Source: an uncultured Bacteroidia bacterium (GTDB lineage Bacteria > Bacteroidota > Bacteroidia > Bacteroidales > UBA932). Taken from it: DNA of 41,279 nt. Where the stretch lies: positions 1 through 41,279 of the forward strand of contig CACXHG010000145.1 in NCBI GenBank assembly GCA_902767355.1, written 5' to 3'. The notes below the pieces were generated by a model that was not told where the DNA came from, did not search any database, and saw only the letters and a list, made by a program, of their open reading frames with translations. Position numbers and translations under genes: made by a program. Positions within the stretch are counted from its first letter, which is position 1. Each line of letters starts with the position of its first letter. Positions 12,066-28,041 of the stretch are shown here, in pieces.

Positions 12066-13039
12066 TTGCGCAGCGCGTTTTCTATAAGGGCCGTGAAGAA
12101 CTCTGTCATATTGCGTCCGGAGGCACGCACCATCTTGGGCACCAGGCTCATGCGCGTCATGCCGGGGGTGGCGTTGATCTCCAGGAAATATACGCCTTCG
12201 CTGCCGGCGATATAGTCTATGCGTATCAGGCCAGTGCCGCCAAGATGAGTGTAAATCTTTTTGGTGCAGGCCGTTATCTGGCCTGCCAGCTCTTCTGATA
12301 TGGGCGCGGGGCAAAGCTCCTCGCTCTTGCCGTTGTATTTGGCGTCGTAATCGAAATACTCGTTGGTGGTGACAATCTCCGTGATGGGCAGGGCCACCGG
12401 CTCGCCGCCGTCCATATAGATGGCCTGGGTCAGCTCGCGGCCGACTATAGCCTTCTCTATCAGGATGGTATCGCCCTCACCAAAGGCATAGTCTATGGCT
12501 GCGGGCAGCAGCGAGGGGTCCTTGACCTTGGTCACGCCAAAACTGCTGCCGCCGTCGGACGGTTTCACAAATACCGGCAGGCCCAGCTTGGCCACGATAT
12601 CTTCTGCATCGTATTGCTGGCCGCGGCGCAGGAACACGTCGGCGGCCATCTTCACGCCCGTGTCTGCCAGAAGCCGCTTGCAGGAATATTTGTTGAAGGC
12701 GATGGTGCACACGAAAGAAGAGCAGGTGGTCACGGGCACGCCCATCATCTCAAAGTAGCCCTGCAGCAGGCCGTTCTCTCCGGGGATGCCGTGAATCATG
12801 ATGCAGGCCACGTCAAACTTGACGCCGGCGCAGGAGAAGTCGCCTTTATCCACCTCCCCTAGCACCTTCATGGTCTCGCCTTCCCACTCTACCAGCTGCC
12901 AGCTGTCGGGGTTGAAGAGCACCTCGAATACATTATATCTTTCCCTATCGATAACAGAAGCGGCATATCTGCCGCTCAAGATTGAAATCGGGCGCTCCGA
13001 AGACGGACCGCCGTAAATTACTGCAACATTCTTTTTCAC
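12062..13039 (-). CDS. ddl: D-alanine--D-alanine ligase
   Basis: 325 aa; MKKNVAVIYGGPSSERPISILSG, ATP-grasp blocks (LPVFVKPSDGGSSFGV, EINATPGMT). Confidence 0.94.
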   Translation of the reverse strand: MKKNVAVIYGGPSSERPISILSGRYAASVIDRERYNVFEVLFNPDSWQLVEWEGETMKVLGEVDKGDFSCAGVKFDVACIMIHGIPGENGLLQGYFEMMGVPVTTCSSFVCTIAFNKYSCKRLLADTGVKMAADVFLRRGQQYDAEDIVAKLGLPVFVKPSDGGSSFGVTKVKDPSLLPAAIDYAFGEGDTILIEKAIVGRELTQAIYMDGGEPVALPITEIVTTNEYFDYDAKYNGKSEELCPAPISEELAGQITACTKKIYTHLGGTGLIRIDYIAGSEGVYFLEINATPGMTRMSLVPKMVRASGRNMTEFFTALIENALRK

Positions 13040-13054
13040 TTCAAAAACTACACT

Positions 13055-15415
13055 TTAATCGAAATAATCATTCTCTTCGTCATAGCCGCCCTCGGACTCA
13101 CCCCAAGAGAGGTTTTCGCCGCCGGAAGCGCAGCTGAGGTCCATATCCCAGCCTGCCGGAGGCACGAACTGCTCGCCGTTGCTTATGCCGATGCTCTTGT
13201 CGGCCATGACCTTCTGCATGAACAGGCCCCAGATAGGCAGTGCCATATTGCTGCCGCCGCCCAGCCGGGTGCTCTCGAAGTGGACCTGACGGTCCTCTGC
13301 GCCCACCCATACGCCGGCGGTGAGCCTGGGCACATAGCCTATGAACCAGCCGTCGGAGTTGTCGTTGGTGGTACCGGTCTTGCCGGCGGCACCCTGTATG
13401 CCGTATTTCCACTTGAGGCGGGTGCCGGTGCCCTCGTTCACCACGCCCTGCATCAGATTAACCATCAGATAGGCTGTCTGGGCGCTCAGGGCCTCCTTCT
13501 TGTGGGGGGCGAAAGTGGTCAGCAGGTTACCCTGGCTGTCCTCTATCTTATCTACGAACATGCTGGTGATATACACGCCCCGCGAGGGGTAGGTGTTGTA
13601 GGCAGACACCATCTCGAACACGGATATGTCGCACGAACCCACGCAGAGCGAGTACACGGGCTCCAGATAGCTGCTGATGCCCATCTTACGGCACATCTCT
13701 ATCATGGCCTCCGGGCCGAACTGCTTCATCAGAAAGGCCGAGATATTGTTGGACGAGTGCGCCAGGCCCCACTTGAGGGTGACCGTCTGGCCTATCCACT
13801 CCGCCCTGTCGGTGCTGCGGGGGGTCCAGGTGGTGTTGCCTATCTCGAAGGTATAGGGTATGTTGGCCACCCTGTCGCAGGGAGAATAGCCTTCCTGCAT
13901 GGCCAGGGTATAGAGATATGGCTTTATGGTAGAGCCCACCTGACGGCGGCCCTGCCGCACGTTGTCGTATTTGAAATAGCGGTAGTCGGGACCGCCCACA
14001 TAGGCCTTGACCTTGCCCGTGTTGGGCTCCACGGCCATCAGCGCAGCCCTCAGGAAGGACTTGTAGTAGCGTATGGAGTCGTTGGGCGTCATCACGGTGT
14101 CTATGCTGCCCTGCCTGTTCCAGGCAAAGACATTCATCTGCACCGGCGTATCGAAGCTCTTGAGGATTTCCTTTTCCGATATGCCCTGCTTTTTCATCCC
14201 CATCCAGCGGTCGCTCCAGCGGCGGGCCTGATTCATGGCGCTGTTTATCACGTCCTGCGGGATGTCGTTGGAGAAGGGGCGGTTGCGCTTGCCGCGCAGC
14301 TCGCGGTCGAAGGTCGGCTGCAAATCCTTGCCAAGATGCTGGCGCACAGCCTGTTCGGCATAACGCTGCATACGGCTGTCGATGGTGGTATATATCCTCA
14401 GGCCGTCCTTGTCCAGATTGTATTTGGTGCCGTCCGGCTTGGTGTTCTTGTTGAGCCAGCCATACAGCGGGTCATCTACCCAGGCGGTGGAATCCACCTG
14501 ATAATCTACCCAGTTGCGATAGTCGCTGCGCTTGGGCTTGGTTGCGTTCATGGTGCGGCGGAGCATATCCCTCAGATAGGGGGCCAGGCCGGTGTTGTGG
14601 TCCTGCCGCTCGTATTTGAGCACAATGTCCAGCTGCTGCAGCGAGTCGCACTCGTGCTTGGTCAGATAGCCGTGCTGGCGCATGCGCGACAGAATCAGGT
14701 TGCGGCGGGCCATCGACTGGTCGTAATTCAGGGCCGGGTTGTAGCGGGTGGGCTTGTTGATCATGCCCACAAGGCAGGCGCTCTCTTCTGCCGTGAGCTC
14801 GCTGGGGTGCTTGTCGAAGAAGGTGCGGGCCGCGGTATTGATGCCGTAGGCGTTGCTGCCGAAGAACACGGCATTCATATACATGGTGATAATCTCGTTC
14901 TTGGTGTAGTTGCGCTCCAACTTGACGGCTGTGATCCACTCCCTGAACTTGATGTTGACCATGTGGATGACCTTGGCGCCCGGGAAGTGCGGATAGCTCT
15001 CGGACCGCGGATAGAGCGTCTTGGCCAGCTGCTGGGTGATGGTGCTGCCGCCGCCCGCAGAGCTCTCACGCATGGCCAGCGTCTTGACCGCCACGCGGGC
15101 CAGGCCGCGGAAATCGATGCCGGAATGCTTGTAGAAGCGGGCGTCTTCGGTGGCCACCGCCGCGTCTATCAGACACTGCGGCAGGTCTTCAAAAGAAGCG
15201 AAGGTCCGGTTCTCGATGTGATAGGTGCTCAGCACGCGGCCGTCGCAGCTGATAAGCTCGGTGGCCAGATTGCTCTTGTGGTTTTCCAACTCCTCGAAAG
15301 ACGGGATTTTGGCAAACAGGGCGACCAGGAGCAGCCAGAAGCCTATGAGCACGAAGGGGGCGACCAAAAGAATCCACCACCACTTTATAATTGTTTTGCG
15401 AGTTTTATCTTTCAT
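13055..15415 (-). CDS. mrcA: penicillin-binding protein 1A (bifunctional transglycosylase/transpeptidase)
   Basis: GT51 motifs (EDARFYKHSGID, GGSTITQQL) and transpeptidase motifs (STIKP, SSN, KTGTT). I prefer the start MKDKTRKTII (ATG 15415) because a TAcaTTTG -7 box (15437-15430, minus) falls inside the longer ORF that begins at 15463. Confidence 0.92.
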   Translation of the reverse strand: MKDKTRKTIIKWWWILLVAPFVLIGFWLLLVALFAKIPSFEELENHKSNLATELISCDGRVLSTYHIENRTFASFEDLPQCLIDAAVATEDARFYKHSGIDFRGLARVAVKTLAMRESSAGGGSTITQQLAKTLYPRSESYPHFPGAKVIHMVNIKFREWITAVKLERNYTKNEIITMYMNAVFFGSNAYGINTAARTFFDKHPSELTAEESACLVGMINKPTRYNPALNYDQSMARRNLILSRMRQHGYLTKHECDSLQQLDIVLKYERQDHNTGLAPYLRDMLRRTMNATKPKRSDYRNWVDYQVDSTAWVDDPLYGWLNKNTKPDGTKYNLDKDGLRIYTTIDSRMQRYAEQAVRQHLGKDLQPTFDRELRGKRNRPFSNDIPQDVINSAMNQARRWSDRWMGMKKQGISEKEILKSFDTPVQMNVFAWNRQGSIDTVMTPNDSIRYYKSFLRAALMAVEPNTGKVKAYVGGPDYRYFKYDNVRQGRRQVGSTIKPYLYTLAMQEGYSPCDRVANIPYTFEIGNTTWTPRSTDRAEWIGQTVTLKWGLAHSSNNISAFLMKQFGPEAMIEMCRKMGISSYLEPVYSLCVGSCDISVFEMVSAYNTYPSRGVYITSMFVDKIEDSQGNLLTTFAPHKKEALSAQTAYLMVNLMQGVVNEGTGTRLKWKYGIQGAAGKTGTTNDNSDGWFIGYVPRLTAGVWVGAEDRQVHFESTRLGGGSNMALPIWGLFMQKVMADKSIGISNGEQFVPPAGWDMDLSCASGGENLSWGESEGGYDEENDYFD

Positions 15416-15483
15416 TTGAGAAGTTTTGGCAAATGTAGAAATAAATCCTTTACTTTGCCACACTAAAATAATAATGGACTGAT

Positions 15484-17763
15484 ATGGGAGAAAATTTGGT
15501 GATAGTGGAGTCCCCGCACAAAGCGAAAACCATCCAGGGTTTTCTGGGGAAGGATTTTGTAGTCAAGTCGAGTCAGGGCCATATCCGCGATTTGCCCAAA
15601 AACAACAATGGCATAGACGTGGACCACGGCTTTGCGCCAAAATACGAAGTGTCGCCGGACAAGAAAAAAATTGTTGCCGACCTCAAGAAATCGGCAGAGA
15701 AAGCCGACATGGTGTGGCTGGCTTCCGATGAAGACCGCGAGGGGGAAGCCATAGCCTGGCACATCAGCGACACTCTGGGCCTGGACAAGTCCAAGAGCAA
15801 GCGCATCGCCTTTCACGAGATTACCAAAAGCGCCATTCTCAACGCCTTGGAGAATCCGCGCGACATAGACATGGACCTGGTGATGGCCCAGCAGGCCCGC
15901 CGTGTGCTGGACCGCCTGGTCGGCTTCGAGCTCTCGCCCATACTCTGGCGCAAGGTGCAGGGGAACCTGTCCGCCGGCCGCGTACAGTCGGTGGCCGTGC
16001 GCCTCATCGTAGACCGGGCCCGCGAGATCGCAGCTTACGATTTTAAACCTTACTTCAAGGTTGACGGCACCTTTATCGCCAAGGGCAACCGCAGCCATCT
16101 GCACGGCACCCTGGACCGCAAGTTTGCCACCGAGGCCGAGGCTGAAGGTTTCCTTAAAAAGTGCATCGGCTGCAATTTCCGCGTCGGCAACATAGAAAAG
16201 AAGACCGGCACCCGGACCCCGGCGGCGCCGTTCACCACCAGCGTGCTGCAGCAGGAAGCCGCCCGCAAGCTGGGCTTTTCCGTGAGCGCCACCATGCAGG
16301 TGGCCCAGGGCCTTTACGAGCGCGGTCTTATCACCTACATGCGTACCGACTCCGTGAACCTGTCTTCGCTGGCCATCAGCACCGCAAAAGAGTTTATCTC
16401 GGAGCATTACGGGGCCGAGTATTCCCATGTGCGCCAGTATCACACCCGCAGCAAAGGCGCCCAGGAAGCCCATGAGGCCATCCGCCCCACCTACATCCAG
16501 AACACCTCTATAGAAGGCACGGCGGCAGAAAAACGCCTCTACGAGCTCATCTGGAAGCGCACCATCGCCAGCCAGATGGCCGACGCCCGCATAGAGAAGA
16601 CCAGCGTGGACATTCTCGGCGACAAGATAGAAGAGAAATTCGTGATGGAGGCCGAGAAAGTACTCTTCGACGGTTTCCTGAAGGTTTACATAGAAGGCCG
16701 CGACGACGAGCCCGAAGAGTCCCTGGCGGCATCGCTGCCCGAGCTCGAGGTCGGCTGCCCGATGCAGAACATAGACATCACCGCCAAGGAGCGCCTGACC
16801 CAGGGCCCCCAGCACTACAGCGAGGCCACCCTGGTCAAGAAGCTCGAAGAGCTGGGCATAGGCCGCCCCTCGACCTACTCCCCCACCATATCCACCATCA
16901 TCAAGCGCGGATATGTGGTCAAGGGCGATGTGCCGGGCGTGCAGCGCCAGTGCACCACCCTCACCCTCAAGGGAGAGGTGATAAGCAGCGCCACCGCCGT
17001 GGAAACCATAGGCAAGGAAAAGAAGAAACTCCTGCCGGAAAACATCGGTATGGTGGTCACAGACTATCTGGAGGCCAATTTCCCCGACATCCTGGACTAT
17101 AACTTCACTGCCAAGGTAGAAGAGGATTTCGACGACATCGCCAAGGGCCACAAGGTCTGGAACGAGGTCATCAGCGAGTTTTACACGCCCTTCCACGCCA
17201 CCGTCAAGGCCAAGATGGAAGACCGCGAATACACCCACGCCGAGCGTGTCATAGGCACCGACCCGGCCAGCGGCAAGCCCGTCATCGCGCGCATGGGCCG
17301 CTTCAGCCCCATCGTGCAGAAGGGCGCCAACGACGACCCCGACAAGCAGTACGCCGGCATGAAGAAGGGCCAGCTGATAGAGAATATCACCCTCGAAGAG
17401 GCCCTCAAGCTGTTTGACCTCCCCCGCAAGGTCGGCATGTTCGAAGATGCCGAGATCGTGGCCGCCATAGGCCGCTTCGGCCCCTACATCAAGCATGGCG
17501 GCAAGTTCTATTCCCTGCCGAAGAACCTCTCGCCGTACAGCATCACCGAAGATGAGGCCGCCGAGGTCATCCGCACCCGGCGCAGCCAGGAAGCCGCCTC
17601 GCATATCGCAGCCTTCCCCGAGCAGGACATCGAGATCAGAGTCGGCCGCTTCGGCCCCTACATCAAGCATGGCGGCAAGAATTACAAGATTCCCAAAAAG
17701 CTCGACCCGGAGAAGCTTTCGGCAGAAGAATGCATGAAAATAATTAACTCTCAAAACAAATAA
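15484..17763 (+). CDS. topA: DNA topoisomerase I (type IA)
   Basis: 759 aa; TOPRIM start (LVIVESPHKAKTI), active-site region GLITYMRTDS, repeated C-terminal GRFGPYIKHGGK motifs. Confidence 0.96.
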   Translation: MGENLVIVESPHKAKTIQGFLGKDFVVKSSQGHIRDLPKNNNGIDVDHGFAPKYEVSPDKKKIVADLKKSAEKADMVWLASDEDREGEAIAWHISDTLGLDKSKSKRIAFHEITKSAILNALENPRDIDMDLVMAQQARRVLDRLVGFELSPILWRKVQGNLSAGRVQSVAVRLIVDRAREIAAYDFKPYFKVDGTFIAKGNRSHLHGTLDRKFATEAEAEGFLKKCIGCNFRVGNIEKKTGTRTPAAPFTTSVLQQEAARKLGFSVSATMQVAQGLYERGLITYMRTDSVNLSSLAISTAKEFISEHYGAEYSHVRQYHTRSKGAQEAHEAIRPTYIQNTSIEGTAAEKRLYELIWKRTIASQMADARIEKTSVDILGDKIEEKFVMEAEKVLFDGFLKVYIEGRDDEPEESLAASLPELEVGCPMQNIDITAKERLTQGPQHYSEATLVKKLEELGIGRPSTYSPTISTIIKRGYVVKGDVPGVQRQCTTLTLKGEVISSATAVETIGKEKKKLLPENIGMVVTDYLEANFPDILDYNFTAKVEEDFDDIAKGHKVWNEVISEFYTPFHATVKAKMEDREYTHAERVIGTDPASGKPVIARMGRFSPIVQKGANDDPDKQYAGMKKGQLIENITLEEALKLFDLPRKVGMFEDAEIVAAIGRFGPYIKHGGKFYSLPKNLSPYSITEDEAAEVIRTRRSQEAASHIAAFPEQDIEIRVGRFGPYIKHGGKNYKIPKKLDPEKLSAEECMKIINSQNK

Positions 17764-18290: not shown

Positions 18291-19277
18291 TTATTCCCCC
18301 GTGTAAAGCGTGGCTTCCCAAGAGAGGACTTCTCCGGGAATGGTCCACGACGCAGGGGTCATCACCGTCACGAAGCCCAGGCCGCCGGAAACGTTTTCCG
18401 GATATATGACAGGTTCTGTCATAAATTCCAGATCGATTCCGTCCCCGTCTTGGGCTTTGACATACATGAATTCGTCAAAGCTGATGGAATACACCTGGAT
18501 CACGGTGTCTATGGCATAGAGGTCGCCGTCTTCCAGATTGGCAAAGAAGTCGTTCCAGTCATTGTAGCGGATAGCATAGCCCTGTTCTACATTGAGCGTG
18601 CAGGTGCCGCCCGCGAACATCTCGTCTGAAAAGAGATTGAAATAATTCGAGATGCTCAAAAATTCCGAGGCCTGGTCGCCTATGGGATTGAGCAGTTTGT
18701 CTTTGCTGCCGTCAAGGTGAATAGGACCCCGTATGCTCGCCAGGGTATTGCCGTCCGCATCCAGTTTCCGGGCCAGCTGATAAGCGGCGAGCATATAGTA
18801 GTCTTTCTGGCCGGCTTGGTCACGAACGCTTATAGCATATTTTGTGACGGGCTGCTTCCCGACATAGTCGGGGGTGCTGTTGTCCATTTCCCGCTTTGTT
18901 TCGACAGCGGTGATTTCGGCAGCGCTTTGCGGCACAATGGCTTCTGCACTGGCTCTAAGGTCGCGCCAGCTGGCCTGCAGGGCGATTTTGTCACCCGGCT
19001 TTAAGTCCGCATCGAACACATAGCCATAGTCTCCATATTCTATGGTCACGGGCGCCGACCCGTTCACGCTGTAGCTCAGGCGGGCATCTTCCAAATAATT
19101 GCAACCGGCGCCTTCGCTGCAATAAATCTGCACGCGATGGCGCGTTTCGTCTTGCTTTAGCTGCGCACACAGCACCAGCACAGGATTGTTGGTGTCTCGC
19201 CAGAGAATCTCCACGTCGTTTTCGCAGGAAGTGAGAGTCAGCAGGGTGGCCAGTGCGGCATATATGGTCTTTTTCAT
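18291..19277 (-). CDS. DUF4249-like lipoprotein (partner of the upstream TonB-dependent receptor)
   Basis: 328 aa; lipoprotein signal (LLTLTSC). Lies immediately downstream of a CarboxypepD_reg-type TonB-dependent receptor, the usual DUF4249 context. The family call is by context and recollection. Confidence 0.65.
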   Translation of the reverse strand: MKKTIYAALATLLTLTSCENDVEILWRDTNNPVLVLCAQLKQDETRHRVQIYCSEGAGCNYLEDARLSYSVNGSAPVTIEYGDYGYVFDADLKPGDKIALQASWRDLRASAEAIVPQSAAEITAVETKREMDNSTPDYVGKQPVTKYAISVRDQAGQKDYYMLAAYQLARKLDADGNTLASIRGPIHLDGSKDKLLNPIGDQASEFLSISNYFNLFSDEMFAGGTCTLNVEQGYAIRYNDWNDFFANLEDGDLYAIDTVIQVYSISFDEFMYVKAQDGDGIDLEFMTEPVIYPENVSGGLGFVTVMTPASWTIPGEVLSWEATLYTGE

Positions 19278-19282
19278 ATCCG

Positions 19283-21748
19283 TCAGAATTTATAAGTATA
19301 GCTGAAAGATGGGAGTATGGGCAGCACCGTCACCTTCTTGACACCGAGGCCCTCACGCTTTTGAGTGTGGCCTTCGTCCCATTTTGTGATATTTTCCGTA
19401 TAGACAAAATCCGGGTTCATATTGTTGTACACATTATAGATACTTATGTTCCAGATTCTCTCGCCGTGGCGCTTTTGCTTGCGGAAATTGATGCCCAGAT
19501 TCAGGGTGTGCGAAGGCGGCAGCCGGTAGTTGCCGCGCGAGGTGACATAAGTCGGTATCTGCGAATAGTATTCCGGAGAAATTACCGCAAACCTACGGGT
19601 GGACAGGGTCGTGACGCCGCCGGTGAAGAACTTCCAGCTGCCGGAGATGTCTATGCGGTTCGAGAACTTGTGATTGACCACCAGGCTTATATCGTGCCGG
19701 CGATCGTATTTGAAGGGGAACCAGGCCCCGCGGTTGATGGTCCCGTCGGGGAAGCAGCGTTCGCTCTTGGCCAGCGTATAGCCCAGCCAGCCGGTGGTGG
19801 CGCCCATAGTCTTCTGCACGAAAAACTCCATTCCGTAGGCGCGGCCACGCCCCATCGCCACCTTGTCTTCCCAGCCGGTGGAGGTAATCAGCACGGACAT
19901 ACCGTCTTTGTACTCCAGCACATTATTCATTGCCTTATAATAGCCTTCCAGCGAGATTTCCCAGCCGCCGGCGCCTTTCCAGTAGGTTCCCAGCGAAACC
20001 TGGTCGGCAATTTCGGGCTTGATGTCGCGGGTGATGGGCACCCAGAGGTCGGTGGGGAGCGATATGTCGGTGGACGAGAGCAGATGCACATATTGCGACA
20101 TACGGGCGTAGGAGGCCTTTATGCTGACCCCGCCGCCGACATCGACCCTGCCCGAGAAGCGCGGCTGCAGGGATGCGTAGGTCTTGCCCTGGGTGTTGAA
20201 GACGCCCAGGTGCAGGCCGGGGTTAAAGGACAGCCTCTGCCCTATCACAAAGTCGTCCTCTACATAGAGGTTAACCTCGTGGCCAGGCAGCGGCTTGCCG
20301 GAGGCCATATTCATGGTGGTGTCTATCCAGGTCTTTTCGCCTTCGGTCTGCTTTTGAGAGAGCGTGGCGGTCTGGGGGCGGAAATTGTGATAGACATATT
20401 CCGCTCCGAACTTGACAAGATGCTCGGGGACAGGATTATAGTCAAAGTCTATCTTGAAGTCGATGTCGTTTATGCCCGAGTCGTAGGTAACTCCCATTAT
20501 CTCCCGCGTCTGTTCTTCCTTCTCTTTATGATAGAGATCGCTTGCAACATCGACGTCCATCTCGTAGTGATTGTAGGCCAGGGTCGTATTGGCAAACAAC
20601 TTGCTGCCGAAGGCGTGGTTCCAGCGCAGGGCCGCCACGGTGTTGCCCCAGTCCAGATTCATTTTGGCGGTTTCCCTGCGGATTACATCTTTGTCGGTGC
20701 CCTTGTAGTTGTCTATCCAGCTTTGTGAGCCGCCCCCATCGCCATAATCGTAGCCATAACCATCATCGGTGCGCATCAGAAAGCGGTCGCGGCCGTGATA
20801 GACGGTGGCAATCAGGCGGTCGCCATTGACAAACCGGTGGGTTATCTTGCCGTTCATGTCGTAGAAATAGTAGTTGGCCGGCACGTCCTTGAGCTTGAGC
20901 AGCGGCGTGAACAGGAAGGTGTGCAGCACGCGGGCGCTTATGCTGTAGGATGTCTGTCCATATACAATCGGGCCCTCCAGATGGAAGCGGTCCGAGAGCA
21001 TTCCCACGCTGACAAGGCCGTGAGTCTCTTTCGCATTGCCGTCGTTGGTGCGCACGTCTATCACCGACGACAGGCGGCCGCCGTAGCGGGCGGGGAAAGA
21101 GCCCTTGAACAGGGTCACCTTCTTGACCGCCTCGGGGGTGAACACCGAGAAGATGCCCAGCATATGACTCACGTTGTAAAGGGGTATGTCGTCCAGCAGA
21201 ATCAAGTTCTCGTCGGGGCCGCCGCCGCGCACATAAATGCCGGAAGTGCCGGTAGTTCCGCCCTGAACGCCCGGCAGATACTGAAGCGACTTGAGCACAT
21301 CCTTCTCCCCGAACAGGGCCGGCATACTCTCCAGTGCATACTCCGGCACCTCCACCGCGCCGGTGTTCGTAGAGTTGATACCTGCCTCCTTACGGGCCGT
21401 TACCACCGCCTCCTTTATGGCGGCCGAAGGGCTGAGGGCGATGTTTATCACCGTGTCGCGCCTCAAGTCTATTGTCTGGGTCTGTTCGGCATAACCTATA
21501 TAAGACCAGGTCAGCGAACGCTCCCCGGCGGGGAGACTCAGGGTATAGAATCCGTAATTGTTGGCCACCGCGCCCACCAGGGGGGCTTTAGGGTCGGGGT
21601 TGTTATACACCACGCCAGCGCCGATGAGCATCTCGCCACTGCCGGCATCGCTGATATAGCCGCTCACCGTGACCTTCTGCGCCTTGGCTGTCAGCGACAC
21701 GAGCGCCGCCACCGCCGTCATCATCATTACTTTCAATATCTTCTTCAT
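19283..21748 (-). CDS. TonB-dependent outer membrane receptor with N-terminal carboxypeptidase-regulatory-like domain
   Basis: I prefer the start MKKILKVMMMTAVAALVSLTAKAQ (ATG 21748). The upstream 48 codons in the track run into a repeated non-coding module. Plug motif (VLKSLQYLPGVQGG..GIYVRGGGPDENLILLDDIPLYN); the barrel ends in an aromatic residue (SYTYKF). Confidence 0.92.
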   Translation of the reverse strand: MKKILKVMMMTAVAALVSLTAKAQKVTVSGYISDAGSGEMLIGAGVVYNNPDPKAPLVGAVANNYGFYTLSLPAGERSLTWSYIGYAEQTQTIDLRRDTVINIALSPSAAIKEAVVTARKEAGINSTNTGAVEVPEYALESMPALFGEKDVLKSLQYLPGVQGGTTGTSGIYVRGGGPDENLILLDDIPLYNVSHMLGIFSVFTPEAVKKVTLFKGSFPARYGGRLSSVIDVRTNDGNAKETHGLVSVGMLSDRFHLEGPIVYGQTSYSISARVLHTFLFTPLLKLKDVPANYYFYDMNGKITHRFVNGDRLIATVYHGRDRFLMRTDDGYGYDYGDGGGSQSWIDNYKGTDKDVIRRETAKMNLDWGNTVAALRWNHAFGSKLFANTTLAYNHYEMDVDVASDLYHKEKEEQTREIMGVTYDSGINDIDFKIDFDYNPVPEHLVKFGAEYVYHNFRPQTATLSQKQTEGEKTWIDTTMNMASGKPLPGHEVNLYVEDDFVIGQRLSFNPGLHLGVFNTQGKTYASLQPRFSGRVDVGGGVSIKASYARMSQYVHLLSSTDISLPTDLWVPITRDIKPEIADQVSLGTYWKGAGGWEISLEGYYKAMNNVLEYKDGMSVLITSTGWEDKVAMGRGRAYGMEFFVQKTMGATTGWLGYTLAKSERCFPDGTINRGAWFPFKYDRRHDISLVVNHKFSNRIDISGSWKFFTGGVTTLSTRRFAVISPEYYSQIPTYVTSRGNYRLPPSHTLNLGINFRKQKRHGERIWNISIYNVYNNMNPDFVYTENITKWDEGHTQKREGLGVKKVTVLPILPSFSYTYKF

Positions 21749-21839: not shown

Positions 21840-22048
21840 CGAACTGTTGCGACTGTTCCCGGAGTCTCTTCCCCGGCCCGCAACACAGTCATCCCCGGCC
21901 CCCCCCTAAATCTCCTTCAACCCGAAAAATGTCGCCTTCAGAGCGAAAAATGTCGGGTTCGCGGTTTTTCGCTTTTTCTCCGGATTATTTGTATATATGT
22001 TTGCGGCCGAGTTTCATTCTGAATATAGTTTTTTAAGAAGACAGAAAT
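21840..22048 (+). repeat. promoter module copy A (upstream of lipoprotein P1)
   Basis: Nearly identical to 27835-28041 (inverted) and to 24184-24350. Contains an inverted repeat TGTTGCG/CGCAACA (21845-21885), a C8 tract (21899-21906), a direct-repeat pair, and a TAtgTTTG -7 box (21996-22003). Confidence 0.9.
21923..21955 (+). promoter_or_regulatory. paired direct repeats CGAAAAATGTCG-N9-CGAAAAATGTCG (candidate LytTR box)
   Basis: Exact 12-mers at 21923-21934 and 21944-21955, a 21-bp period. The proximal repeat ends 40 bp upstream of the -7 box. Confidence 0.6.
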
Positions 22049-22720
22049 ATGAATAGTAGAATCATACAATTATTTGCTGCCATCGGGTGCGTAGCAATCT
22101 TTGCCTCATCATGCATTCCACAATATGAAAAGGTGGAAAATGACCCATATGAGGCCATATACCGCGTCGAAGACATTAATGCTGAGATTATTTTTCATCA
22201 GTTATTTATCCGCCCGCTGATAGGTGAGAAAGATGAAGCTTTCGATGCCGAAAGCAGATCTTTCTACAGCAGTGTGGATACTTCGCTCTGTTTTACGGGG
22301 AAAGTGCCATATACGGCTTTTAACGGAGGTTATCGCCCCGTCTTGTCTGCCGTAGACTGGCGGATTTCGAAGATGGATGTTATTACGCTTGAGGATTTTG
22401 ATGCAGCTCACCCTGCCGGATCATCACTTATGGATCTTTGTGAGCTATGGTATGAATATAAGCATAGCGATATCATCGGCCCTCTCAAAGATGTCTATCT
22501 CAATCCGTTAATGCTCACAGACTACGATCCTTGGAATAAGGGTCACCACGAAATACTTAAAATCGAGTTACATTCTTCTGCAGATAAAATACCACCGAGA
22601 GCAGAGTATCCGCACTATAAGAAACGCGACTATGACAGCAAGGATCTAACGAACTTTCCAGCTGTCGAGGTTCGTATCACCGACTCTTTCGGCCGCGAAT
22701 TCATAAAGCGGGTGGAATAA
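22049..22720 (+). CDS. small lipoprotein P1, unknown function (paralog of 27163-27834)
   Basis: 223 aa; signal peptide with lipobox (IFASSC). Homologous over its full length to the 223-aa product of 27163-27834. I recognise no family. Confidence 0.85.
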   Translation: MNSRIIQLFAAIGCVAIFASSCIPQYEKVENDPYEAIYRVEDINAEIIFHQLFIRPLIGEKDEAFDAESRSFYSSVDTSLCFTGKVPYTAFNGGYRPVLSAVDWRISKMDVITLEDFDAAHPAGSSLMDLCELWYEYKHSDIIGPLKDVYLNPLMLTDYDPWNKGHHEILKIELHSSADKIPPRAEYPHYKKRDYDSKDLTNFPAVEVRITDSFGREFIKRVE

Positions 22721-22741
22721 TAAGCAACAAAAAGTTTATAC

Positions 22742-22778
22742 AGCGGAGCTGGCCTATCGTGGCGGCTCCGCTTTTTTT
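22742..22778 (+). terminator. rho-independent terminator of P1
   Basis: Stem AGCGGAGC (22742-22749) pairs with GCTCCGCT (22765-22772), followed by a T run. The same sequence recurs inverted at 27104-27141. Confidence 0.75.
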
Positions 22779-22813
22779 GCAATATGCTTAACGCCAACGT
22801 GGCGAAGAACTTA

Positions 22814-23158
22814 TCAGGCAAATTGATTTGACATCAAATATTCCTTGAGCATAGGAAGGTCTTTCTTGAGGATCTCCCATATTGTATTCATATCCACATT
22901 GTAGTAGTCGTGGACAAGAATATGCCTTAATCCCGCTATTGCTTCCCAATCAATCTCGGGATGCGCTGCCACGAAGGCCCTTGAGAGCATATAGGAGCCT
23001 TCTCCAATGCACTGAAGATTATAGATGACGGCGTGGCACAATAACTTGTTTGATGTAAAATCTTCGCTGGAGTTCACCCCCGAGAGGAATTCTTCTATGT
23101 TGGCGACAGCTTCTTTCATCAGCTCCAGCCGGGCGGTGTCATTGACTTTATCTCGCAT
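22814..23158 (-). CDS. hepT: HepT-like (DUF86/HEPN) toxin of a HepT-MNT toxin-antitoxin pair
   Basis: 114 aa; Rx4HxY HEPN motif (RHILVHDY). Overlaps the upstream nucleotidyltransferase gene by 11 nt. Confidence 0.85.
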   Translation of the reverse strand: MRDKVNDTARLELMKEAVANIEEFLSGVNSSEDFTSNKLLCHAVIYNLQCIGEGSYMLSRAFVAAHPEIDWEAIAGLRHILVHDYYNVDMNTIWEILKKDLPMLKEYLMSNQFA

Positions 23159-24101
23159 AAATCAGATACTTGTCCCGTTCTGCGGATGGGATTGCGAATG
23201 GCTTGAGTGAACCATTAGTGACAAGGTCAACCTCTCGCCCGATAGAGCGCTCCATATCAAGCTTATATCTTATAATATCCAGCAGCGATACGTGCGCCTG
23301 GCGGTCGTAATCCACAAGCAGATCCAGATCACTTGAATCATTCTCTTCCCCTCGGGCAAAAGAGCCGAATACCCACGCCTTAACCACAGGAGTTGACGAC
23401 AGGAAACCCTGAATTTTTGAGAACATTTCAATTCGGTGCATATCAAGCGAAGACAGGCGATGGTGCAATTCTTCGCAAACGCCGCGCCTTGCCGCATAAC
23501 GGTTCAATTTGTTGCGATTGACAGGATACACTTCCATCATCTTCTGGTAGTGACGTTTAAGATAATCCTCTGACACATTCTTGCGGCAAAGCAGGTCCAC
23601 CAAATCTTTCTCCAATGACGGGAGCACGATGTCTCCTTCTTCAATCAACGGCGCTTCTGTCACTCGCGGGCCAACAATTATGTACCCTTCAATACGTGCC
23701 GGAAATTGTTCTGCAGAATGCTTGTCCACAACTTTGTATCCATGTGAATCAAGACATTCGACTATTCTGGGAATGTCGCCTTTGTAGGTCTCTATATACA
23801 GATTTGCATCCCTTTCACACAGGCAATGGTCAATGCCGATACATTCGTCTATCAGCAAATCGTTAACTTCACGCATCCAAGGTGTGATGTCCGGCAGATA
23901 TTTAGGTTTGTGCACGGGAATATACCTGCCTCGGCCGACCCTGGAAACGCGCCCGGCCAGGCAGAGAGCGCGAATCTTGGAGTACACGGTTGCAGCAGGT
24001 TTGTCGCCGCACACAGACATAAAATCTTCTGTGCACAGCTCCCGGCCTTGCGCAAGCAGACACTCTATTTCGCTTCCTAAGTGCATCGCTTCGTTTTTCA
24101 T
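23148..24101 (-). CDS. MNT-type nucleotidyltransferase antitoxin fused to a long wHTH/AbiEi-like N-terminal region
   Basis: The C-terminus carries the GSx10DxD minimal nucleotidyltransferase motif (GSFARGEENDSSDLDLLVDY). The N-terminal ~230 aa has a wHTH-like segment (ATVYSKIRALCLAGRVSRVGRGRYIP). I prefer the ATG at 24101 (MKNEAMHLG). The track ORF starts 10 codons earlier at a TTG (24131) that lies inside a palindrome. Confidence 0.8.
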   Translation of the reverse strand: MKNEAMHLGSEIECLLAQGRELCTEDFMSVCGDKPAATVYSKIRALCLAGRVSRVGRGRYIPVHKPKYLPDITPWMREVNDLLIDECIGIDHCLCERDANLYIETYKGDIPRIVECLDSHGYKVVDKHSAEQFPARIEGYIIVGPRVTEAPLIEEGDIVLPSLEKDLVDLLCRKNVSEDYLKRHYQKMMEVYPVNRNKLNRYAARRGVCEELHHRLSSLDMHRIEMFSKIQGFLSSTPVVKAWVFGSFARGEENDSSDLDLLVDYDRQAHVSLLDIIRYKLDMERSIGREVDLVTNGSLKPFAIPSAERDKYLIYAR

Positions 24102-24118
24102 TTCGGGTGCAATATATA

Positions 24119-24157
24119 AATAATTCGGCAAAATACAATTATAATTGCCGAATTATT
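24119..24157. promoter_or_regulatory. perfect 13-N13-13 palindrome, candidate operator of the MNT-HepT operon
   Basis: AATAATTCGGCAA (24119-24131) and TTGCCGAATTATT (24145-24157) are exact reverse complements. The element lies 18-56 bp upstream of the ATG at 24101. Confidence 0.5.
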
Positions 24158-24183
24158 AAAACTGGTGCCGTCATTCGCCCCCT

Positions 24184-24365
24184 TTGTTGCGACCGTTCCC
24201 GGAGTCTCTTCCCCGACCCGCAACACAATCATCCCCGAGCCCCCAAAAACACCTTCAATCCGAAAAATGTCGCCTTCAGAGCGAAAAATGTCGGGTTCGC
24301 GGTTTTTCGCTTTTTCTCAGGGTTTTTTGTATATATGTTTGCGGCTAGATTACTAGAACACGGAA
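24184..24365 (+). repeat. promoter module copy B (upstream of lipoprotein P2)
   Basis: Same module as copy A: inverted repeat TGTTGCG/CGCAACA (24185-24225), C5 tract, direct-repeat pair, TAtgTTTG (24334-24341). The 5-prime UTR after about 24346 differs from copies A and C. Confidence 0.9.
24261..24293 (+). promoter_or_regulatory. paired direct repeats CGAAAAATGTCG-N9-CGAAAAATGTCG (candidate LytTR box)
   Basis: Exact 12-mers at 24261-24272 and 24282-24293. The proximal repeat ends 40 bp upstream of the -7 box. Confidence 0.6.
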
Positions 24366-24995
24366 ATGAAAAGGTTCATATTTGTTTTTCTCGCCGCTGT
24401 ACTATGCTCATGTGGGGAACACATTGGTTCTGCCAAGTACTATTCAAAGGACATTATTGGGTGGTACAAGTGCACTGTTGCAGAATGGATGCACCCTATG
24501 GCTATAGATATCAACAACGATGGAGTTGTAGGGCGAGACCTAATGAGTGAAGTAGAGAGCATAACCATGGCCGATATAGCTCTGAAAAGGATACCCGTAA
24601 GGATAACTGATATAAATGGGTTTGATACACCTTCGGACTATATCTACGTGCAAGTCCCTCACCAAGGCCTATTCTACGAGGAATCGTCAGATACTTATAT
24701 ACCTGGGCTAACGACAGATTTCTTTTATTTTTATTTTACGTATTCCATTGACACTAATGGTGATATCCGCATATCTCGACCGGTTGTCGAAGATTTGGGC
24801 CTTAGCTATGTACAGTTGCCGGGAAATAAGGATGTCAATATCAATCAGCTTGGTAATAATGTCCTTGATTATACAATTATTACCACTTTTTATGACTTTA
24901 ATTCGCAGCGCTTTGTGACCGGCCCGGTACATTATCGCTATGAGAGGATATATAGTGATCCATACGAGACTAGTTGGAAGACGCTGGTAAAATAG
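24366..24995 (+). CDS. small lipoprotein P2, unknown function
   Basis: 209 aa; lipoprotein signal (FLAAVLCSC). Unrelated in sequence to P1 and P3. Contains two D-x-N-x-D-G-like loops (DINNDGVVGRD, DTNGDIRIS). Confidence 0.8.
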   Translation: MKRFIFVFLAAVLCSCGEHIGSAKYYSKDIIGWYKCTVAEWMHPMAIDINNDGVVGRDLMSEVESITMADIALKRIPVRITDINGFDTPSDYIYVQVPHQGLFYEESSDTYIPGLTTDFFYFYFTYSIDTNGDIRISRPVVEDLGLSYVQLPGNKDVNINQLGNNVLDYTIITTFYDFNSQRFVTGPVHYRYERIYSDPYETSWKTLVK

Positions 24996-25018
24996 ATGCA
25001 TCCTTACATATTTGCTAA

Positions 25019-25054
25019 CGTGGGGCAGCCCGTTTTGGCAGCCTCACGTTTTTT
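25019..25054 (+). terminator. probable rho-independent terminator of P2
   Basis: Imperfect stem CGTGGGGCAGCC (25019-25030) pairs with GGCAGCCTCACG (25037-25048) at 10 of 12 positions, followed by T6 (25049-25054). Confidence 0.6.
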
Positions 25055-25127
25055 GAATGTTGCTGCTGATGTGACGTTGCCTGAATCTGGCAGTCGATAT
25101 TTCAAGATCCTGCCCGCCGTTTCAACC

Positions 25128-25219
25128 CGAAAAATGTCGCCTTCAGCGCGAAAAATGTTGCCTTCGCGGGGTGCGGAAATCTCCGGGTTTGTACGGGGCT
25201 GACAAAAACGGTATATTTG
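25128..25219 (+). promoter_or_regulatory. promoter of the kinase/regulator operon with its own direct-repeat pair
   Basis: CGAAAAATGTCG (25128-25139) and CGAAAAATGTTG (25149-25160) are 21 bp apart. A consensus -7 box TAtaTTTG (25212-25219) lies 51 bp downstream, and the ATG is at 25240. Confidence 0.6.
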
Positions 25220-25239
25220 TCCGACAGGAGCAGTGCGCA

Positions 25240-26349
25240 ATGGGCATCAACATTTTCAACACATATAAGACCACCAGGCGCGAGATGCACATGCGGCATC
25301 TCGGACTGATAGCCCTGGCCGTGGTTTTCAGCTGGGTGCTGTGGGTTATCGTGGACTATCCGGAGTATTCCACGCTTCACGGTAAAGCTCTGGTGCTGGA
25401 ATTGCTCAAACAGTTCGGCGAACAGCTTGTAGAGACTACGATTCTGCTGGAGATATCCTTGCTGTACATCAAAGGCATCGTCCGCTTTTTCTGGGACAAG
25501 GAGAAGAATCTTAAGAACCTCATTATCCAGGTGATGATTCTGGCAGTGCTCAACGGCTTCTCATCGGTGATGATGGGCCTTCTCTACCGGCAATTATACC
25601 CCGCAAAAGAGCGCATCTTCGCGCAGATAGCCTTTACGGATTATCTTAGTCTCTCAGTGCTGACCACAGCCTATTTGGTCATCTTCCTTATCAACCGCTA
25701 TCGAGACGAGATGGATGCTCACCTTGAGGCGGAGCGCAAACTCAAGGAAGAGGAGAATATCCGCCTGAAAGCGCAATTGAAAAACCTGTCGCTTCAGACC
25801 GACAATCACTTCGTTTTCAATAGCTTGAGTACGCTCGCCAGCCTCATCAAAACATCACCGGAAGATGCGGGCGCCTTTGTGGTTGATTTCTCCAGTATGT
25901 ACAGATATCTGGTTACAAACGGAGCCAGGGACATCGTTTCGCTAAAAGACGAACTCGCGTTTGCGGGCGATTACATTGAGCTGCTAAAGTACCGCTACAG
26001 CGGCGTCAGTGTGATCATAGATGCCTCGCTCTCCGCTATTCACGGCTATGCCAGTCCTGCGGCCATTGAGGGCCTGATAGAGAACGCCGTAAAGCATAAC
26101 CGGCACGGCAAAGATGACACCCTGCGCATTGAGATAAAGAAAGACGGGGACTACATAGTAGTATCCAACAACATTTTACCTATAGCAGGCGAAAGCCGCA
26201 CCACTGGCACCGGACTGGCCACACTCAGGGATAGGTATCTCATGCTGTGCGGCAAGCCGGTGACAGTGTTGAACGACGGTGCAACCTTCACCGTCACACT
26301 TCCGATTATGTATGAGGAGGACCTGAAAGATGAAAGTATTGATTATTGA
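25240..26349 (+). CDS. LytS/YehU-type sensor histidine kinase (His_kinase PF06580-like)
   Basis: I prefer the start MGINIFN (25240), just downstream of the -7 box. About four N-terminal TM helices with short loops, a coiled coil, an H-box (HFVFNSLSTLASLI) and an N-box (IENAVKHN). Confidence 0.88.
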   Translation: MGINIFNTYKTTRREMHMRHLGLIALAVVFSWVLWVIVDYPEYSTLHGKALVLELLKQFGEQLVETTILLEISLLYIKGIVRFFWDKEKNLKNLIIQVMILAVLNGFSSVMMGLLYRQLYPAKERIFAQIAFTDYLSLSVLTTAYLVIFLINRYRDEMDAHLEAERKLKEEENIRLKAQLKNLSLQTDNHFVFNSLSTLASLIKTSPEDAGAFVVDFSSMYRYLVTNGARDIVSLKDELAFAGDYIELLKYRYSGVSVIIDASLSAIHGYASPAAIEGLIENAVKHNRHGKDDTLRIEIKKDGDYIVVSNNILPIAGESRTTGTGLATLRDRYLMLCGKPVTVLNDGATFTVTLPIMYEEDLKDESIDY

Positions 26350-27088
26350 GGATGAGGCTCATATTGCAGCCGCGATGAAAGCGCTGCTGAAGAAGTTGCG
26401 GCCGGAGGCAGAAATAGTGGGTGTGACCACCAACATAAGCGACTCGCGCCGGATGATAGAATCGCACCCGGACCTGGATATAATCTTCTCCGACATAAGG
26501 ATAGACGACGGCCTGTCTTTCACGATATTCGAGAGCGTTAAGACTGAGGCGATGATTGTCTTTACCACCGCCTATAACGAATATGCGCTCAAGGCATTTG
26601 ACTTTCATTGCGTGGATTACCTCCTAAAGCCCGTCACAGAAAAGACGCTGGAGGTGACACTTCTCAAATGCGAATCCCGCACCGCCAGAATAGATAACGC
26701 TGTCATTAGGGCCATCACAGAAGAAATCCTCAGCCGCAGCGTCCGCTACCGCCAGCGTATCCTGCTTCATGTCGGCCGAGAAACCAGCATCTGGCCTGTG
26801 TCCAGAATAAGCTATATAACGACGGAAAAAGGCGTGACAAGTGCCTTTTTGGACAACGGTCAGGCCGGGATAGTAAACTACTCCATCACAGATTTGGCCG
26901 AGAGCTTGCCACCTGAGACATTCCTGCGCATCAACCGCCAGGCCATAGTGAACATAGGCAGCATTGCAAAGCTATCACGTGGCGATAGTCGCGAAAACAC
27001 CCTTACACTTGCAGAGCCTTACTCTGGCATAACATTCCCCATCAGCCAGGAAAAGAAGAAGCAGCTGCAGGAATTGCTGGACAGGTAA
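26330..27088 (+). CDS. LytR/AlgR-family response regulator (REC + LytTR DNA-binding domain)
   Basis: 252 aa; REC domain (MKVLIIEDE...IIFSDIRIDDG) and LytTR domain (ISYITTEKGVTSAFLDNGQ...FLRINRQAIVNIGSI). Overlaps the kinase gene by 20 nt. Confidence 0.92.
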   Translation: MKVLIIEDEAHIAAAMKALLKKLRPEAEIVGVTTNISDSRRMIESHPDLDIIFSDIRIDDGLSFTIFESVKTEAMIVFTTAYNEYALKAFDFHCVDYLLKPVTEKTLEVTLLKCESRTARIDNAVIRAITEEILSRSVRYRQRILLHVGRETSIWPVSRISYITTEKGVTSAFLDNGQAGIVNYSITDLAESLPPETFLRINRQAIVNIGSIAKLSRGDSRENTLTLAEPYSGITFPISQEKKKQLQELLDR

Positions 27089-27103
27089 TGCAGGTATGCA
27101 ATG

Positions 27104-27141
27104 CAAAAAAAGCGGAGCCGCCACGCTAGGTCAGCTCCGCT
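27104..27141 (-). terminator. rho-independent terminator of P3 (inverted copy of the P1 terminator)
   Basis: Stem AGCGGAGC (27111-27118) pairs with GCTCCGCT (27134-27141). The plus-strand A run at 27104-27110 is a T run on the minus strand. It differs from the 22742-22778 copy only at 2 loop positions. Confidence 0.75.
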
Positions 27142-27162
27142 GTATAAACTTTTTGTTGCTTA

Positions 27163-27834
27163 TTATTCCACACTCTTTATGAATTCGCGGCCGAAAGCGT
27201 CGGTGATACGGACTTCTACCGGCGGGAAAGGGGTCGTATTATTCCTCTGATATGCAAATTTTTTATACTCAGGATATTCTTTCTTAGGGTGATTATCTTC
27301 TGATCTTTTGAATAGACATATGCTAAACCCACCAACAGTAGTACTACTCCAACTGTATGGGTAGTAATCTGTGAGCATTGCTGTGCCATAAGTCAGATCT
27401 TCCAATGGTCTTAATATGTATGAATGCTTATACTCGTACCAGACCTGACATAAATCGTTAATAGAAGAACCTGCCTTATGTGCATCATCGTAATCATCAA
27501 GTGTAATTATATCAACATCACACAGTCGCCAATCTACAGCGCACCAGCATGACCGGGACATCGTGGCGGAAGTTAAAGCGGGTCTTTTCCCCGAATAAGT
27601 CAAGTTAGTATCGATAGCTTTATAGAATCGTCGGCTGTCGGAGTCATATTCTTCATTGTAATCAGCGAGATTGCCGTTGATATTAATCCTATCGTCCCCA
27701 ATATCTATGCTTATATCCTCAACCCTATATATACGCGAATACGGTTCACCAACTACGGCCTCTGTTGTCTTTACACATGATTGAAGAAATAAAACGAACA
27801 TGGCCAATGTTATCATTGAAAGAACTCTATTCAT
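27163..27834 (-). CDS. small lipoprotein P3, unknown function (paralog of 22049-22720)
   Basis: 223 aa; lipobox (LFLQSC). Shares blocks with P1: YRVEDI, AVDWR, ITL-D-D-AH-AGSS, DLC--WYEYKHS, MLTDY, VEVRITD-FGREFIK-VE. Confidence 0.85.
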   Translation of the reverse strand: MNRVLSMITLAMFVLFLQSCVKTTEAVVGEPYSRIYRVEDISIDIGDDRININGNLADYNEEYDSDSRRFYKAIDTNLTYSGKRPALTSATMSRSCWCAVDWRLCDVDIITLDDYDDAHKAGSSINDLCQVWYEYKHSYILRPLEDLTYGTAMLTDYYPYSWSSTTVGGFSICLFKRSEDNHPKKEYPEYKKFAYQRNNTTPFPPVEVRITDAFGREFIKSVE

Positions 27835-28041
27835 ATTTCTGCCTCCTTAAAAAACTATATTCAGAATGAAATTCGGCCGCAAACATATATACAAAAAAAC
27901 CGGAGAAAAAGCGAAAAACCGCGAACCCGACATTTTTCGCTCTGAAGGCGACATTTTTCGGGTTGAACGGGGGGTGGGTGGTTCGGGGATGACTGTGTTG
28001 CGGGCCGGGGAAGAGACTCCGGGAACGGGCGCAACAGTTCG
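27835..28041 (-). repeat. promoter module copy C (upstream of lipoprotein P3, inverted orientation)
   Basis: Its reverse complement aligns with 21840-22048, apart from an ~18-bp variable patch and a few substitutions. Inverted repeat arms at 27996-28002 and 28030-28036; -7 box at 27887-27880 (minus). Confidence 0.9.
27928..27960 (-). promoter_or_regulatory. paired direct repeats CGAAAAATGTCG-N9-CGAAAAATGTCG (candidate LytTR box)
   Basis: Exact 12-mers on the minus strand at 27960-27949 and 27939-27928. The proximal repeat ends 40 bp upstream of the -7 box. Confidence 0.6.

Follow-up and report, generated by a model that had tools for sequence, protein, structure and literature searches.

Paired 21-bp direct repeats as the probable operator of a LytTR two-component system in a lipoprotein island of an uncultured Bacteroidales bacterium

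The DNA analysed here, a stretch of 41,279 nt from an uncultured Bacteroidia bacterium (Bacteroidales; UBA932; contig CACXHG010000145.1 of assembly GCA_902767355.1; hereafter the window), contains a membrane histidine kinase gene and a LytTR response regulator gene, which are surrounded by small lipoprotein genes and by four pairs of direct repeats with a 21-bp period. We consider it probable, judging from the sequence of the window and of related loci, that these paired 21-bp units are the operator of the adjacent regulator. A first-pass annotation of the window had predicted such an operator controlling the lipoprotein genes, and this prediction gains support from four or more other lineages, in which the motif recurs, within non-homologous flanks, beside orthologues of the kinase/regulator pair. 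The architecture of the sites, their statistical non-randomness, their conservation beside orthologous two-component systems and a mosaic of promoter cassettes and cargo genes are direct observations and are described in the following. Other loci and contigs are referred to by L-numbers.

Results

The 12-mer CGAAAAATGTCG, with up to one mismatch allowed, matches the window eight times where 0.18 matches are expected, and none of 100 shuffles reached eight. The eight matches form four pairs, all with a start-to-start spacing of 21 bp, just as the first-pass annotation had described them. Pair 1 (12-mers at 21923-21934 and 21944-21955, extended units at 21923-21943 and 21944-21964, plus strand) belongs to the promoter of the gene termed lipo1, pair 2 (24261-24272 and 24282-24293, plus strand) to that of lipo2 and pair 3 (27960-27949 and 27939-27928, minus strand) to that of lipo3. 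The fourth pair (25128-25139 and 25149-25160, plus strand, within 25114-25169) lies upstream of the kinase operon, and its second 12-mer reads CGAAAAATGTTG. At the three lipoprotein promoters the distance from the end of the proximal 12-mer (21955, 24293, 27928) to the start of the -7 box (21996, 24334, 27887) is exactly 40 nt, so that the previously noted 40-bp interval to TAtgTTTG applies without deviation. The 12-mer itself, on the other hand, had to be replaced as the motif: the conserved unit comprises about 17 nt with a consensus of about AAAATGTCGnGTTCAcGG, occurs in two tandem copies and has AAATGTCGnnTTCA as its informative core. The promoter-proximal unit is better conserved than the distal one.

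Alignment and repeat finding revealed that a single promoter module of about 165 bp (the paralogous repeat measures about 165-235 bp), here called cassette, is present in three copies and accounts for all three lipoprotein sites. Cassette 1 (21845-22007, plus strand) consists of a GC-rich upstream segment, the two 21-bp units and the -7 box TATGTTTG at 21996-22003 and drives lipo1. Cassette 2 (24185-24345, plus strand, two units, -7 box at 24334-24341) drives lipo2, and cassette 3 (27876-28036, minus strand, two units, -7 box at 27887-27880) drives lipo3. The copies are 86-96% identical to each other, and their homology ends about 8 nt past the -7 box, that is, roughly at the transcription start. 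Despite these shared cassettes the similarity of the cargo is low, with lipo1 and lipo3 sharing 43.5% amino-acid identity and lipo2 being unrelated to both. The -7 box TAnnTTTG is perfect in all three cassettes and at the kinase promoter. The identity of the repeats at several promoters, on which the first-pass annotation had built, is real, but the three lipoprotein sites are dependent observations, because all of them belong to one paralogous cassette. In all cassettes a 7-bp inverted repeat (21944-21971 in cassette 1) arises from the CGAAAAA of unit 2 and a TTTTTCG located 14 nt further downstream; it is absent from the kinase site and from the orthologous sites. Folding of the GC-rich cassette segment on both strands and of the lipo1 5′ untranslated region gave no structure signal (z-scores of -0.56, -0.42 and +0.66), and an Rfam scan of 21-29 kb in E-value mode returned just two chance snoRNA-like matches.

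Evidence beyond this single cassette comes from loci that encode orthologous kinase/regulator pairs. The next homologues of the regulator are at most 56% identical, and the loci compared range from 43 to 56%. A first footprinting of the kinase-upstream regions of L020-L023, looking for periodic 9-mers (at most one mismatch) or for GAAAAATGT, gave no matches. The success in the orthologues is owed to the redefinition of the core as TGTC-N3-TTC after this search for identical 9-mers had failed: with the relaxed core TGT[CT]-N3-TTC and a spacing of 20-22 bp, pairs were found at two sites in L020 and in L036. In both loci the proximal TTC lies exactly 35 nt before the -7 box, a distance as defined from the window alone, and L034 exhibits the same layout with TGAC/TGAG variants. 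A composite template derived from the window, which combines two copies of AAATGTCGNNTTC at a period of exactly 21 bp (18 or more matches out of 22), an interval of exactly 35 nt and TAnnTTTG (5 or more out of 6), yielded four matches in 108 kb of six orthologous loci (L020 twice, L034 and L036), compared to none in 118 kb of unrelated control loci and none in 500 first-order Markov simulations.

As the thresholds of this composite test had been chosen post hoc, the criterion was then fixed and one more orthologue, P0048 with 50% identity, was fetched. Both its locus, L039, and an independent contig, L040, contain a site scoring 21/22 (CAATGTCGGTTTC / AAATGTCGGTTTC) with the 21-bp period, the 35-nt gap, the box TATGTTCG and a -33 TTTG 11 nt after the repeat; in L039 this site lies between the kinase gene and a lipoprotein operon transcribed divergently from it. 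L020-, L034 and L039 each have a canonical -33 TTTG at a distance of exactly 11 nt downstream of the repeat. The 21-bp period is exact at the four window sites and at every strong orthologous site (L020 twice, L034, L036, L039/L040). This distance of 11 nt matches the 10-11 bp reported for LytTR operons (PMC6193735), which supports the reading of the repeats as an operator.

A strict two-unit pattern was additionally scanned over a metagenome collection of 241 million records and matched just three contigs (L024, L025 and L026), all of which carry variants of the window locus. The co-occurrence of the repeat unit with kinase and regulator, which the first-pass annotation had suggested to look for in related genomes, is supported in the loci compared: the strict matches come from this very locus, L020, L034, L036 and L039 match the composite template and the controls do not. 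A scan of the GTDB representative genomes led to a different kind of 21-bp repeat, namely CGAAAAATGT-containing arrays with 3 to 23 copies each in three Bacteroidales metagenome-assembled genomes from termite guts, and with them to the idea that the 33-bp unit (two repeats at the 21-bp period) is a member of a generic Bacteroidales satellite family. We assign a practically negligible probability to this idea. The arrays share just a 10-mer with the window unit, they lack the TCGnnTTCA half as well as a promoter box at the right distance, no kinase or regulator is encoded near them, and the search pattern itself had selected for a 21-bp period. They were hence rejected as evidence for a generic repeat. 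For the record, arrays with CGAAAAATGT or CGGAAAATGT lie at 807-1294 in L009, at about 3410-3485 in L001, at about 960-1255 in L018, at 26-769 in L004 and at 1-230 in L015; in L004 and L015 they adjoin other 21-bp arrays of unrelated sequence (TTTTGGGAGCTCCCAATTTCA, 13.6 copies; CGTCCCCGCCCGGCTAATCGT, 6.5 copies).

The assignment of the two regulatory genes was confirmed by Pfam. The membrane histidine kinase (25240-26349, plus strand) matches PF06580 His_kinase (E 8.6e-18) and, weakly, HATPase_c, and no 5TMR_LYT or GAF sensor domain was detected in it by Pfam. The response regulator (26330-27088, plus strand) matches Response_reg (E 2.8e-11) and LytTR (E 1.3e-15), and in an alignment with its orthologues the receiver residues D9, D55, T83 and K105 are conserved. 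The two genes overlap by 20 nt.

The site upstream of the kinase gene differs from the cassettes, with which the region has just a repeat core of about 49-56 bp in common. Its pair ends 51 nt before the -7 box compared to 40 nt in the cassettes and is thereby displaced outward by 11 nt, i.e., one helical turn. The kinase promoter moreover possesses canonical -33 and -7 elements (TTTG at 25188-25191, 20 nt, TATATTTG at 25212-25219), in keeping with primary-sigma promoters of Bacteroidetes, where a -33 TTTG precedes TAnnTTTG by 19-21 nt. According to the first-pass annotation none of the promoters had a good -33 element, as would be expected for activator-dependent promoters. This is correct for the window cassettes, whose -33 element is degenerate and T-rich, and such an element fits activator dependence. 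It does not hold at the kinase promoter or at the majority of orthologous target promoters, and as the latter have the canonical TTTG, the argument from a missing -33 element is not a general one.

The repeat pair upstream of the window kinase operon had also been taken as a sign of autoactivation. The pair is present, but the arrangement is not conserved in L019, L027, L036 and L039. Two units precede the kinase gene in the window and in L026, placed 11 nt further from the promoter than in the cassettes, whereas just one unit is present in L019 and in L027, where it has been mutated to TGCCG in L027; the kinase-upstream region of L019 is a hybrid of the cassette and kinase types. L036 has no site upstream of the kinase gene. 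The sole site of L039 is located in a divergent region shared with the kinase gene and is oriented away from it, toward the lipoprotein operon. In L034 the kinase genes are located inside the motif-bearing operon. Because the window pair is one helical turn out of register, L019 and L027 have but a single unit, L036 lacks a site and the L039 site faces away, autoregulation of the kinase/regulator operon appears doubtful.

Every strong site adjoins the kinase and regulator genes and points at lipoprotein genes. In L020 the predicted targets are a C10 protease operon and a gene for a lipoprotein of 463 amino acids (aa), in L036 a pair of genes for 386-aa and 205-aa products, the former with a lipoprotein signal peptide. 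For L034 and L039 the predicted target is an operon encoding a lipoprotein of about 530-565 aa, a lipoprotein of about 200 aa, a TonB-dependent receptor of the CarboxypepD_reg/Plug type and a DUF4249 protein. Genes of the lipo2 family are predicted targets in the window, in L034 and in L039. The pair of TonB receptor and DUF4249 is a conserved neighbour of this kinase/regulator family and is part of the motif-bearing operon in L034 and L039; in L037 it is a neighbour only, convergent downstream of the regulator gene. The first-pass annotation had regarded the three window lipoproteins as the outputs of the circuit. All three do have lipoprotein signal peptides, but the set is wider, since a related strain adds the C10 protease operon and the orthologous loci the operon of lipoprotein, TonB receptor and DUF4249.

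The lipoproteins of about 530-565 aa constitute a family of their own (28-29% identical, no Pfam match) with genes at 3459-5156 in L034, 5583-7205 in L037 and 7221-8804 in L039. The gene heads the motif-bearing operon in L034 and L039, and in L037 just a weak motif match lies upstream of it. A weak candidate site is also found in L022 (6740-6893, minus strand), where it is followed by a terminator-like hairpin AAAAAGCCTAAAAAGGCTTTTT about 30 nt past the predicted start and about 200 nt before a lipoprotein gene. The hairpin may belong to an attenuator or to a small RNA, unless the candidate site is itself a chance match.

In close relatives the island varies from strain to strain. The sister genome L019, the regulator of which is 96% identical, and the complete 54-kb contig L027 carry it at the same chromosomal site, between the TonB receptor gene and ispD/purH. 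The arrangement in L025 is that of the window. In L024 a cassette precedes a different, 148-aa lipoprotein gene adjoining the regulator gene, and in L026 the order is TonB receptor, cassette, gene fragment, lipo2-like gene, repeat pair and kinase. In L027 one cassette drives a Peptidase_C10 gene followed by a lipo1 orthologue, and the others drive a lipo2-like gene and a gene for about 150 aa. The interior of the island, which comprises the toxin-antitoxin pair, cassette 2, lipo2, the kinase and the regulator, is inverted between the window (22744-27219) and L027 (10616-15101) within collinear flanks. Inverted repeats at 22603-22781 and 27102-27280 of the window correspond to the 3′ ends of lipo1 and lipo3, which are 81% complementary, and the crossover of the inversion likely took place there.

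The cassettes could also be seen mainly as recombination substrates, which shuffle and invert surface-lipoprotein genes and thereby create antigenic or functional variation at the strain level, with two-component control being secondary or absent. The cargo behind the same cassette indeed differs among the window, L019, L024, L026 and L027, the interior has been inverted, and the island has a GC content below that of its flanks and is bounded by inverted copies. As the principal explanation of the repeats this is nevertheless highly improbable: Pfam revealed no recombinase gene in the island, the crossover of the inversion falls within the 3′ ends of the lipo1 and lipo3 genes and not within the repeats, and the orthologous loci retain the motif without any multiplicity of cassettes. 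The role in recombination is real at the strain level, as the swapped cargo and the inverted interior document, and it is compatible with a regulatory role of the repeats.

Regarding the cargo, lipo1 (22049-22720, plus strand) encodes a 223-aa lipoprotein with a signal peptide ending in ASSC, and lipo3 (27163-27834, minus strand) its paralogue of likewise 223 aa with a signal peptide ending in LQSC. The unrelated lipo2 (24366-24995, plus strand) encodes a 209-aa lipoprotein with a signal peptide ending in LCSC; it belongs to a family of lipoproteins of about 200 aa, matching L034_210 (E 7e-17) and L039_200 (E 4e-5), and L027_211 is a further member. The lipo1 family is tiny, as searching 5.8 billion proteins yielded just 12 members. 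No Pfam match was obtained for lipo1, yet its AlphaFold model is confident and rich in beta structure (predicted local distance difference test 82.7, predicted template modelling score 0.76). A fold search of the PDB with this model returned nothing significant (best E 0.18), and going by the model the fold may be undescribed.

Genes for a Peptidase_C10 (SpeB-like) lipoprotein together with a small lipoprotein lie beside this two-component family in L027 (8557-10675), L032 (2195-4283) and L020 (5253-6781). The small gene directly downstream of the protease gene belongs to the lipo1 family in the relatives L027 and L032 and encodes an unrelated 139-aa protein in L020. In the window the protease gene has been lost and lipo1 is kept directly behind the cassette. 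The L020 locus further adjoins conjugation genes (relaxase, TraG-like coupling protein, lytic transglycosylase) and defence-like genes (SLFN/AlbA_2, NA-iREase2) at 12538-16762, and because of this neighbourhood the two-component module would seem to travel on mobile elements.

On the minus strand, divergent from cassette 1, the window encodes a TonB-dependent receptor of the CarboxypepD_reg/Plug type (19283-21748) and, beside it, its DUF4249 partner (18291-19277). Inside the island a toxin-antitoxin-like pair is encoded on the minus strand (22814-24131), consisting of a HepT-like RNase and a nucleotidyltransferase (MNT) with an N-terminal DUF6577 domain. It is absent from L026 and is probably a passenger outside the circuit. 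The island at 22.0-28.0 kb has a GC content of 41-52% as opposed to 55-68% in the flanks, and it is bounded by inverted copies of cassette and lipoprotein gene; this low GC content and these bounding copies suggest that it was acquired horizontally.

Discussion

Several points weigh against the paired units being the operator of the adjacent regulator. The sites of the window lineage are homologous, recombining copies, and for this reason their identity could reflect gene conversion instead of selection. The number of units upstream of the kinase gene varies even among close relatives. The thresholds of the composite test were picked after the first orthologous matches had been seen; only the criterion applied to L039 was set beforehand. 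L022, L037 and L038 gave weak or imperfect composite matches and were not counted as support. The LytTR domains of the motif-sharing orthologues are just 42-49% identical. Finally, the scan of the source genome covered this contig alone; in the contigs examined, all cassettes detected lie near the two-component system.

The identity within the window lineage would be accounted for if the repeats had no role of their own in a promoter module that was recently duplicated and gene-converted, with the 21-bp tandem being a product of slippage and the proximity to the two-component genes being coincidental. Three of the four sites do lie in one paralogous cassette, the kinase promoter has one or two units depending on the relative, and the cassettes recombine while the island interior has been inverted between strains. 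What speaks against passive duplication is that the two-unit motif, with the same 21-bp period and the same 35-nt distance, occurs in the non-homologous loci L020, L034, L036 and L039 and is absent from controls and simulations. Furthermore, the region spanning the repeats and the -7 box hardly varies among eight cassette copies on five contigs and forms the best-conserved part of the cassette, whereas the GC-rich upstream part varies. Passive duplication is therefore regarded as very unlikely.

A second possibility is that the motif is a genuine operator, but that of a transcription factor encoded elsewhere. The assignment to the adjacent regulator is derived from sequence, the low identity of the LytTR domains among loci sharing the motif would be compatible with another factor, and a separate LytTR-only protein is encoded near the L036 locus. 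Yet, the kinase/regulator pair is the sole regulator common to all motif-bearing loci, and the geometry, with direct repeats paired at a 21-bp period and placed 10-11 nt from the promoter, is a hallmark of LytTR regulators (PMC6193735). We hence regard a factor encoded elsewhere as unlikely.

With the adjacent regulator as the preferred binding partner, the following mechanism can be proposed. The membrane kinase would sense an envelope or extracellular cue and phosphorylate the regulator, a dimer of which would bind both direct repeats on one face of the helix. With the proximal unit ending 11 nt upstream of the -33 element and 35 nt upstream of the -7 box TAnnTTTG, the bound regulator would activate transcription by the RNA polymerase containing the primary sigma factor of Bacteroidetes. 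We infer the binding itself, activation as opposed to repression, and the dependence on phosphorylation. The operator would be packaged in the portable cassette of about 165 bp and would have been recombined onto lipo1, lipo2 and lipo3, and in sister strains onto the C10 cysteine protease operon and other small lipoprotein genes.

More tentatively, the cassette may constitute a portable, regulator-addressed promoter module, which ends at the transcription start and is pasted by homologous recombination before interchangeable lipoprotein cargo, such as the C10 protease, its partner or other small lipoproteins. The island would then be a strain-variable "plug-in" output panel for one sensor. We consider this a possibility of rather low probability; if true, it would represent a promoter-cassette analogue of gene-cassette systems and would permit a rapid turnover of envelope and secreted effectors in Bacteroidales under a single signal.

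Pairs of a PF06580 kinase and a LytTR regulator are among the commonest two-component systems of gut Bacteroidales. The first-pass annotation had stated that neither regulons nor binding sites are known to be defined for them in Bacteroidota, and the literature searched agrees: for the kinase-linked LytTR regulators of this phylum it contained neither a defined operator nor a defined regulon, the in-silico prediction in PMC6193735 being the only related work. The window locus and its orthologues provide a motif (AAAATGTCGnGTTCAcGG twice, with a 21-bp period), a fixed geometry (11 nt to the -33 and 35 nt to the -7 element) and a conserved set of predicted targets (the lipoprotein of about 530 aa, the lipo2 family and the TonB receptor with DUF4249, complemented in some lineages by C10 cysteine proteases). 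Together, these make the regulon computable across genomes, and the signal, the binding and the link to the protease become directly testable.

Comparison with known systems

The LytTR regulators of Firmicutes (AgrA, ComE, BlpR, PlnC/PlnD, VirR) resemble the regulator of the window in combining a receiver with a LytTR domain and in being encoded beside their kinase, in having two direct repeats with a period of about 21 bp just upstream of the promoter, and in targeting small secreted or exported products encoded nearby. Known LytTR boxes have a GTTnA/G core. Compared with the consensus [TA][AC][CA]GTTN[AG][TG], just the core GTTCA/G of the window units fits, in contrast to the flanking positions, and this likeness is a lead only. 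The conserved unit of the window is also longer, with about 17 nt (AAATGTCGnnTTCA) as opposed to a 9-mer of the ACAGTTAAG type. Further differences are the promoter, which is of the Bacteroidetes -33/-7 type, the lack of a conserved site for autoregulation and the kinase, which is of the PF06580 (LytS/YehU-like) type, unlike the HPK10 kinases AgrC and ComD. As neither a pheromone precursor, a processing or export gene nor an HPK10 kinase was found between 21.9 and 28.1 kb and as the kinase is of the PF06580 type, the locus is not a peptide quorum-sensing circuit of the Agr/Com/Blp type.

With LytSR and YehUT (BtsSR) the system shares the pairing of a kinase with the PF06580 His_kinase domain and a LytTR regulator. 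However, the window kinase has no 5TMR_LYT or GAF match, and the predicted targets are lipoproteins, a protease and a TonB-receptor operon, unlike the holin-like genes lrgAB/cidAB or the pyruvate transporter controlled by those systems. Because of the missing 5TMR_LYT domain and the absence of holin-like targets, it is not LytSR proper.

Also comparable are the "LRS-like" operons that were described in silico for Bacteroides thetaiotaomicron and B. ovatus (PMC6193735). There, direct repeats of 11 bp with an 11-bp spacer are predicted 11 bp upstream of a TGTA-N19-TATCTTTG Bacteroides promoter, and a strong bias for a distance of 10 bp between repeat and promoter was reported for LytTR operons in general. 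The repeat-to-promoter distance is thus equal to that at the sites described here, and the motifs in both end in TTCA. In contrast, the LRS-like operons encode a membrane protein and a transmembrane LytTR protein and no kinase or response regulator, their period is 22 bp instead of 21 bp, the sequence of the motif differs, and just the promoter of the operon itself was considered.

The protease genes recall the C10 protease loci Bfp and Btp of Bacteroides, which have adjacent small lipoprotein inhibitors (PMC2873492, PMC3462683). Similarly, a C10 lipoprotein gene in L027, L032 and L020 shares its operon with a small lipoprotein gene downstream of it, and the C10 proteins at these loci carry an Inhibitor_I69 propeptide. 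The downstream partners of the lipo1 family (200-224 aa), unlike the inhibitors of those loci, have no detectable similarity to the staphostatin-like Bfi/Bti proteins and match no fold in the PDB, and a search of PMC3462683 gave no mention of a two-component system or a histidine kinase. Taken as a whole, the proposed mechanism is the one expected for LytTR regulators acting through direct repeats, to which the locus adds a promoter cassette that is portable and a connection with C10 proteases.

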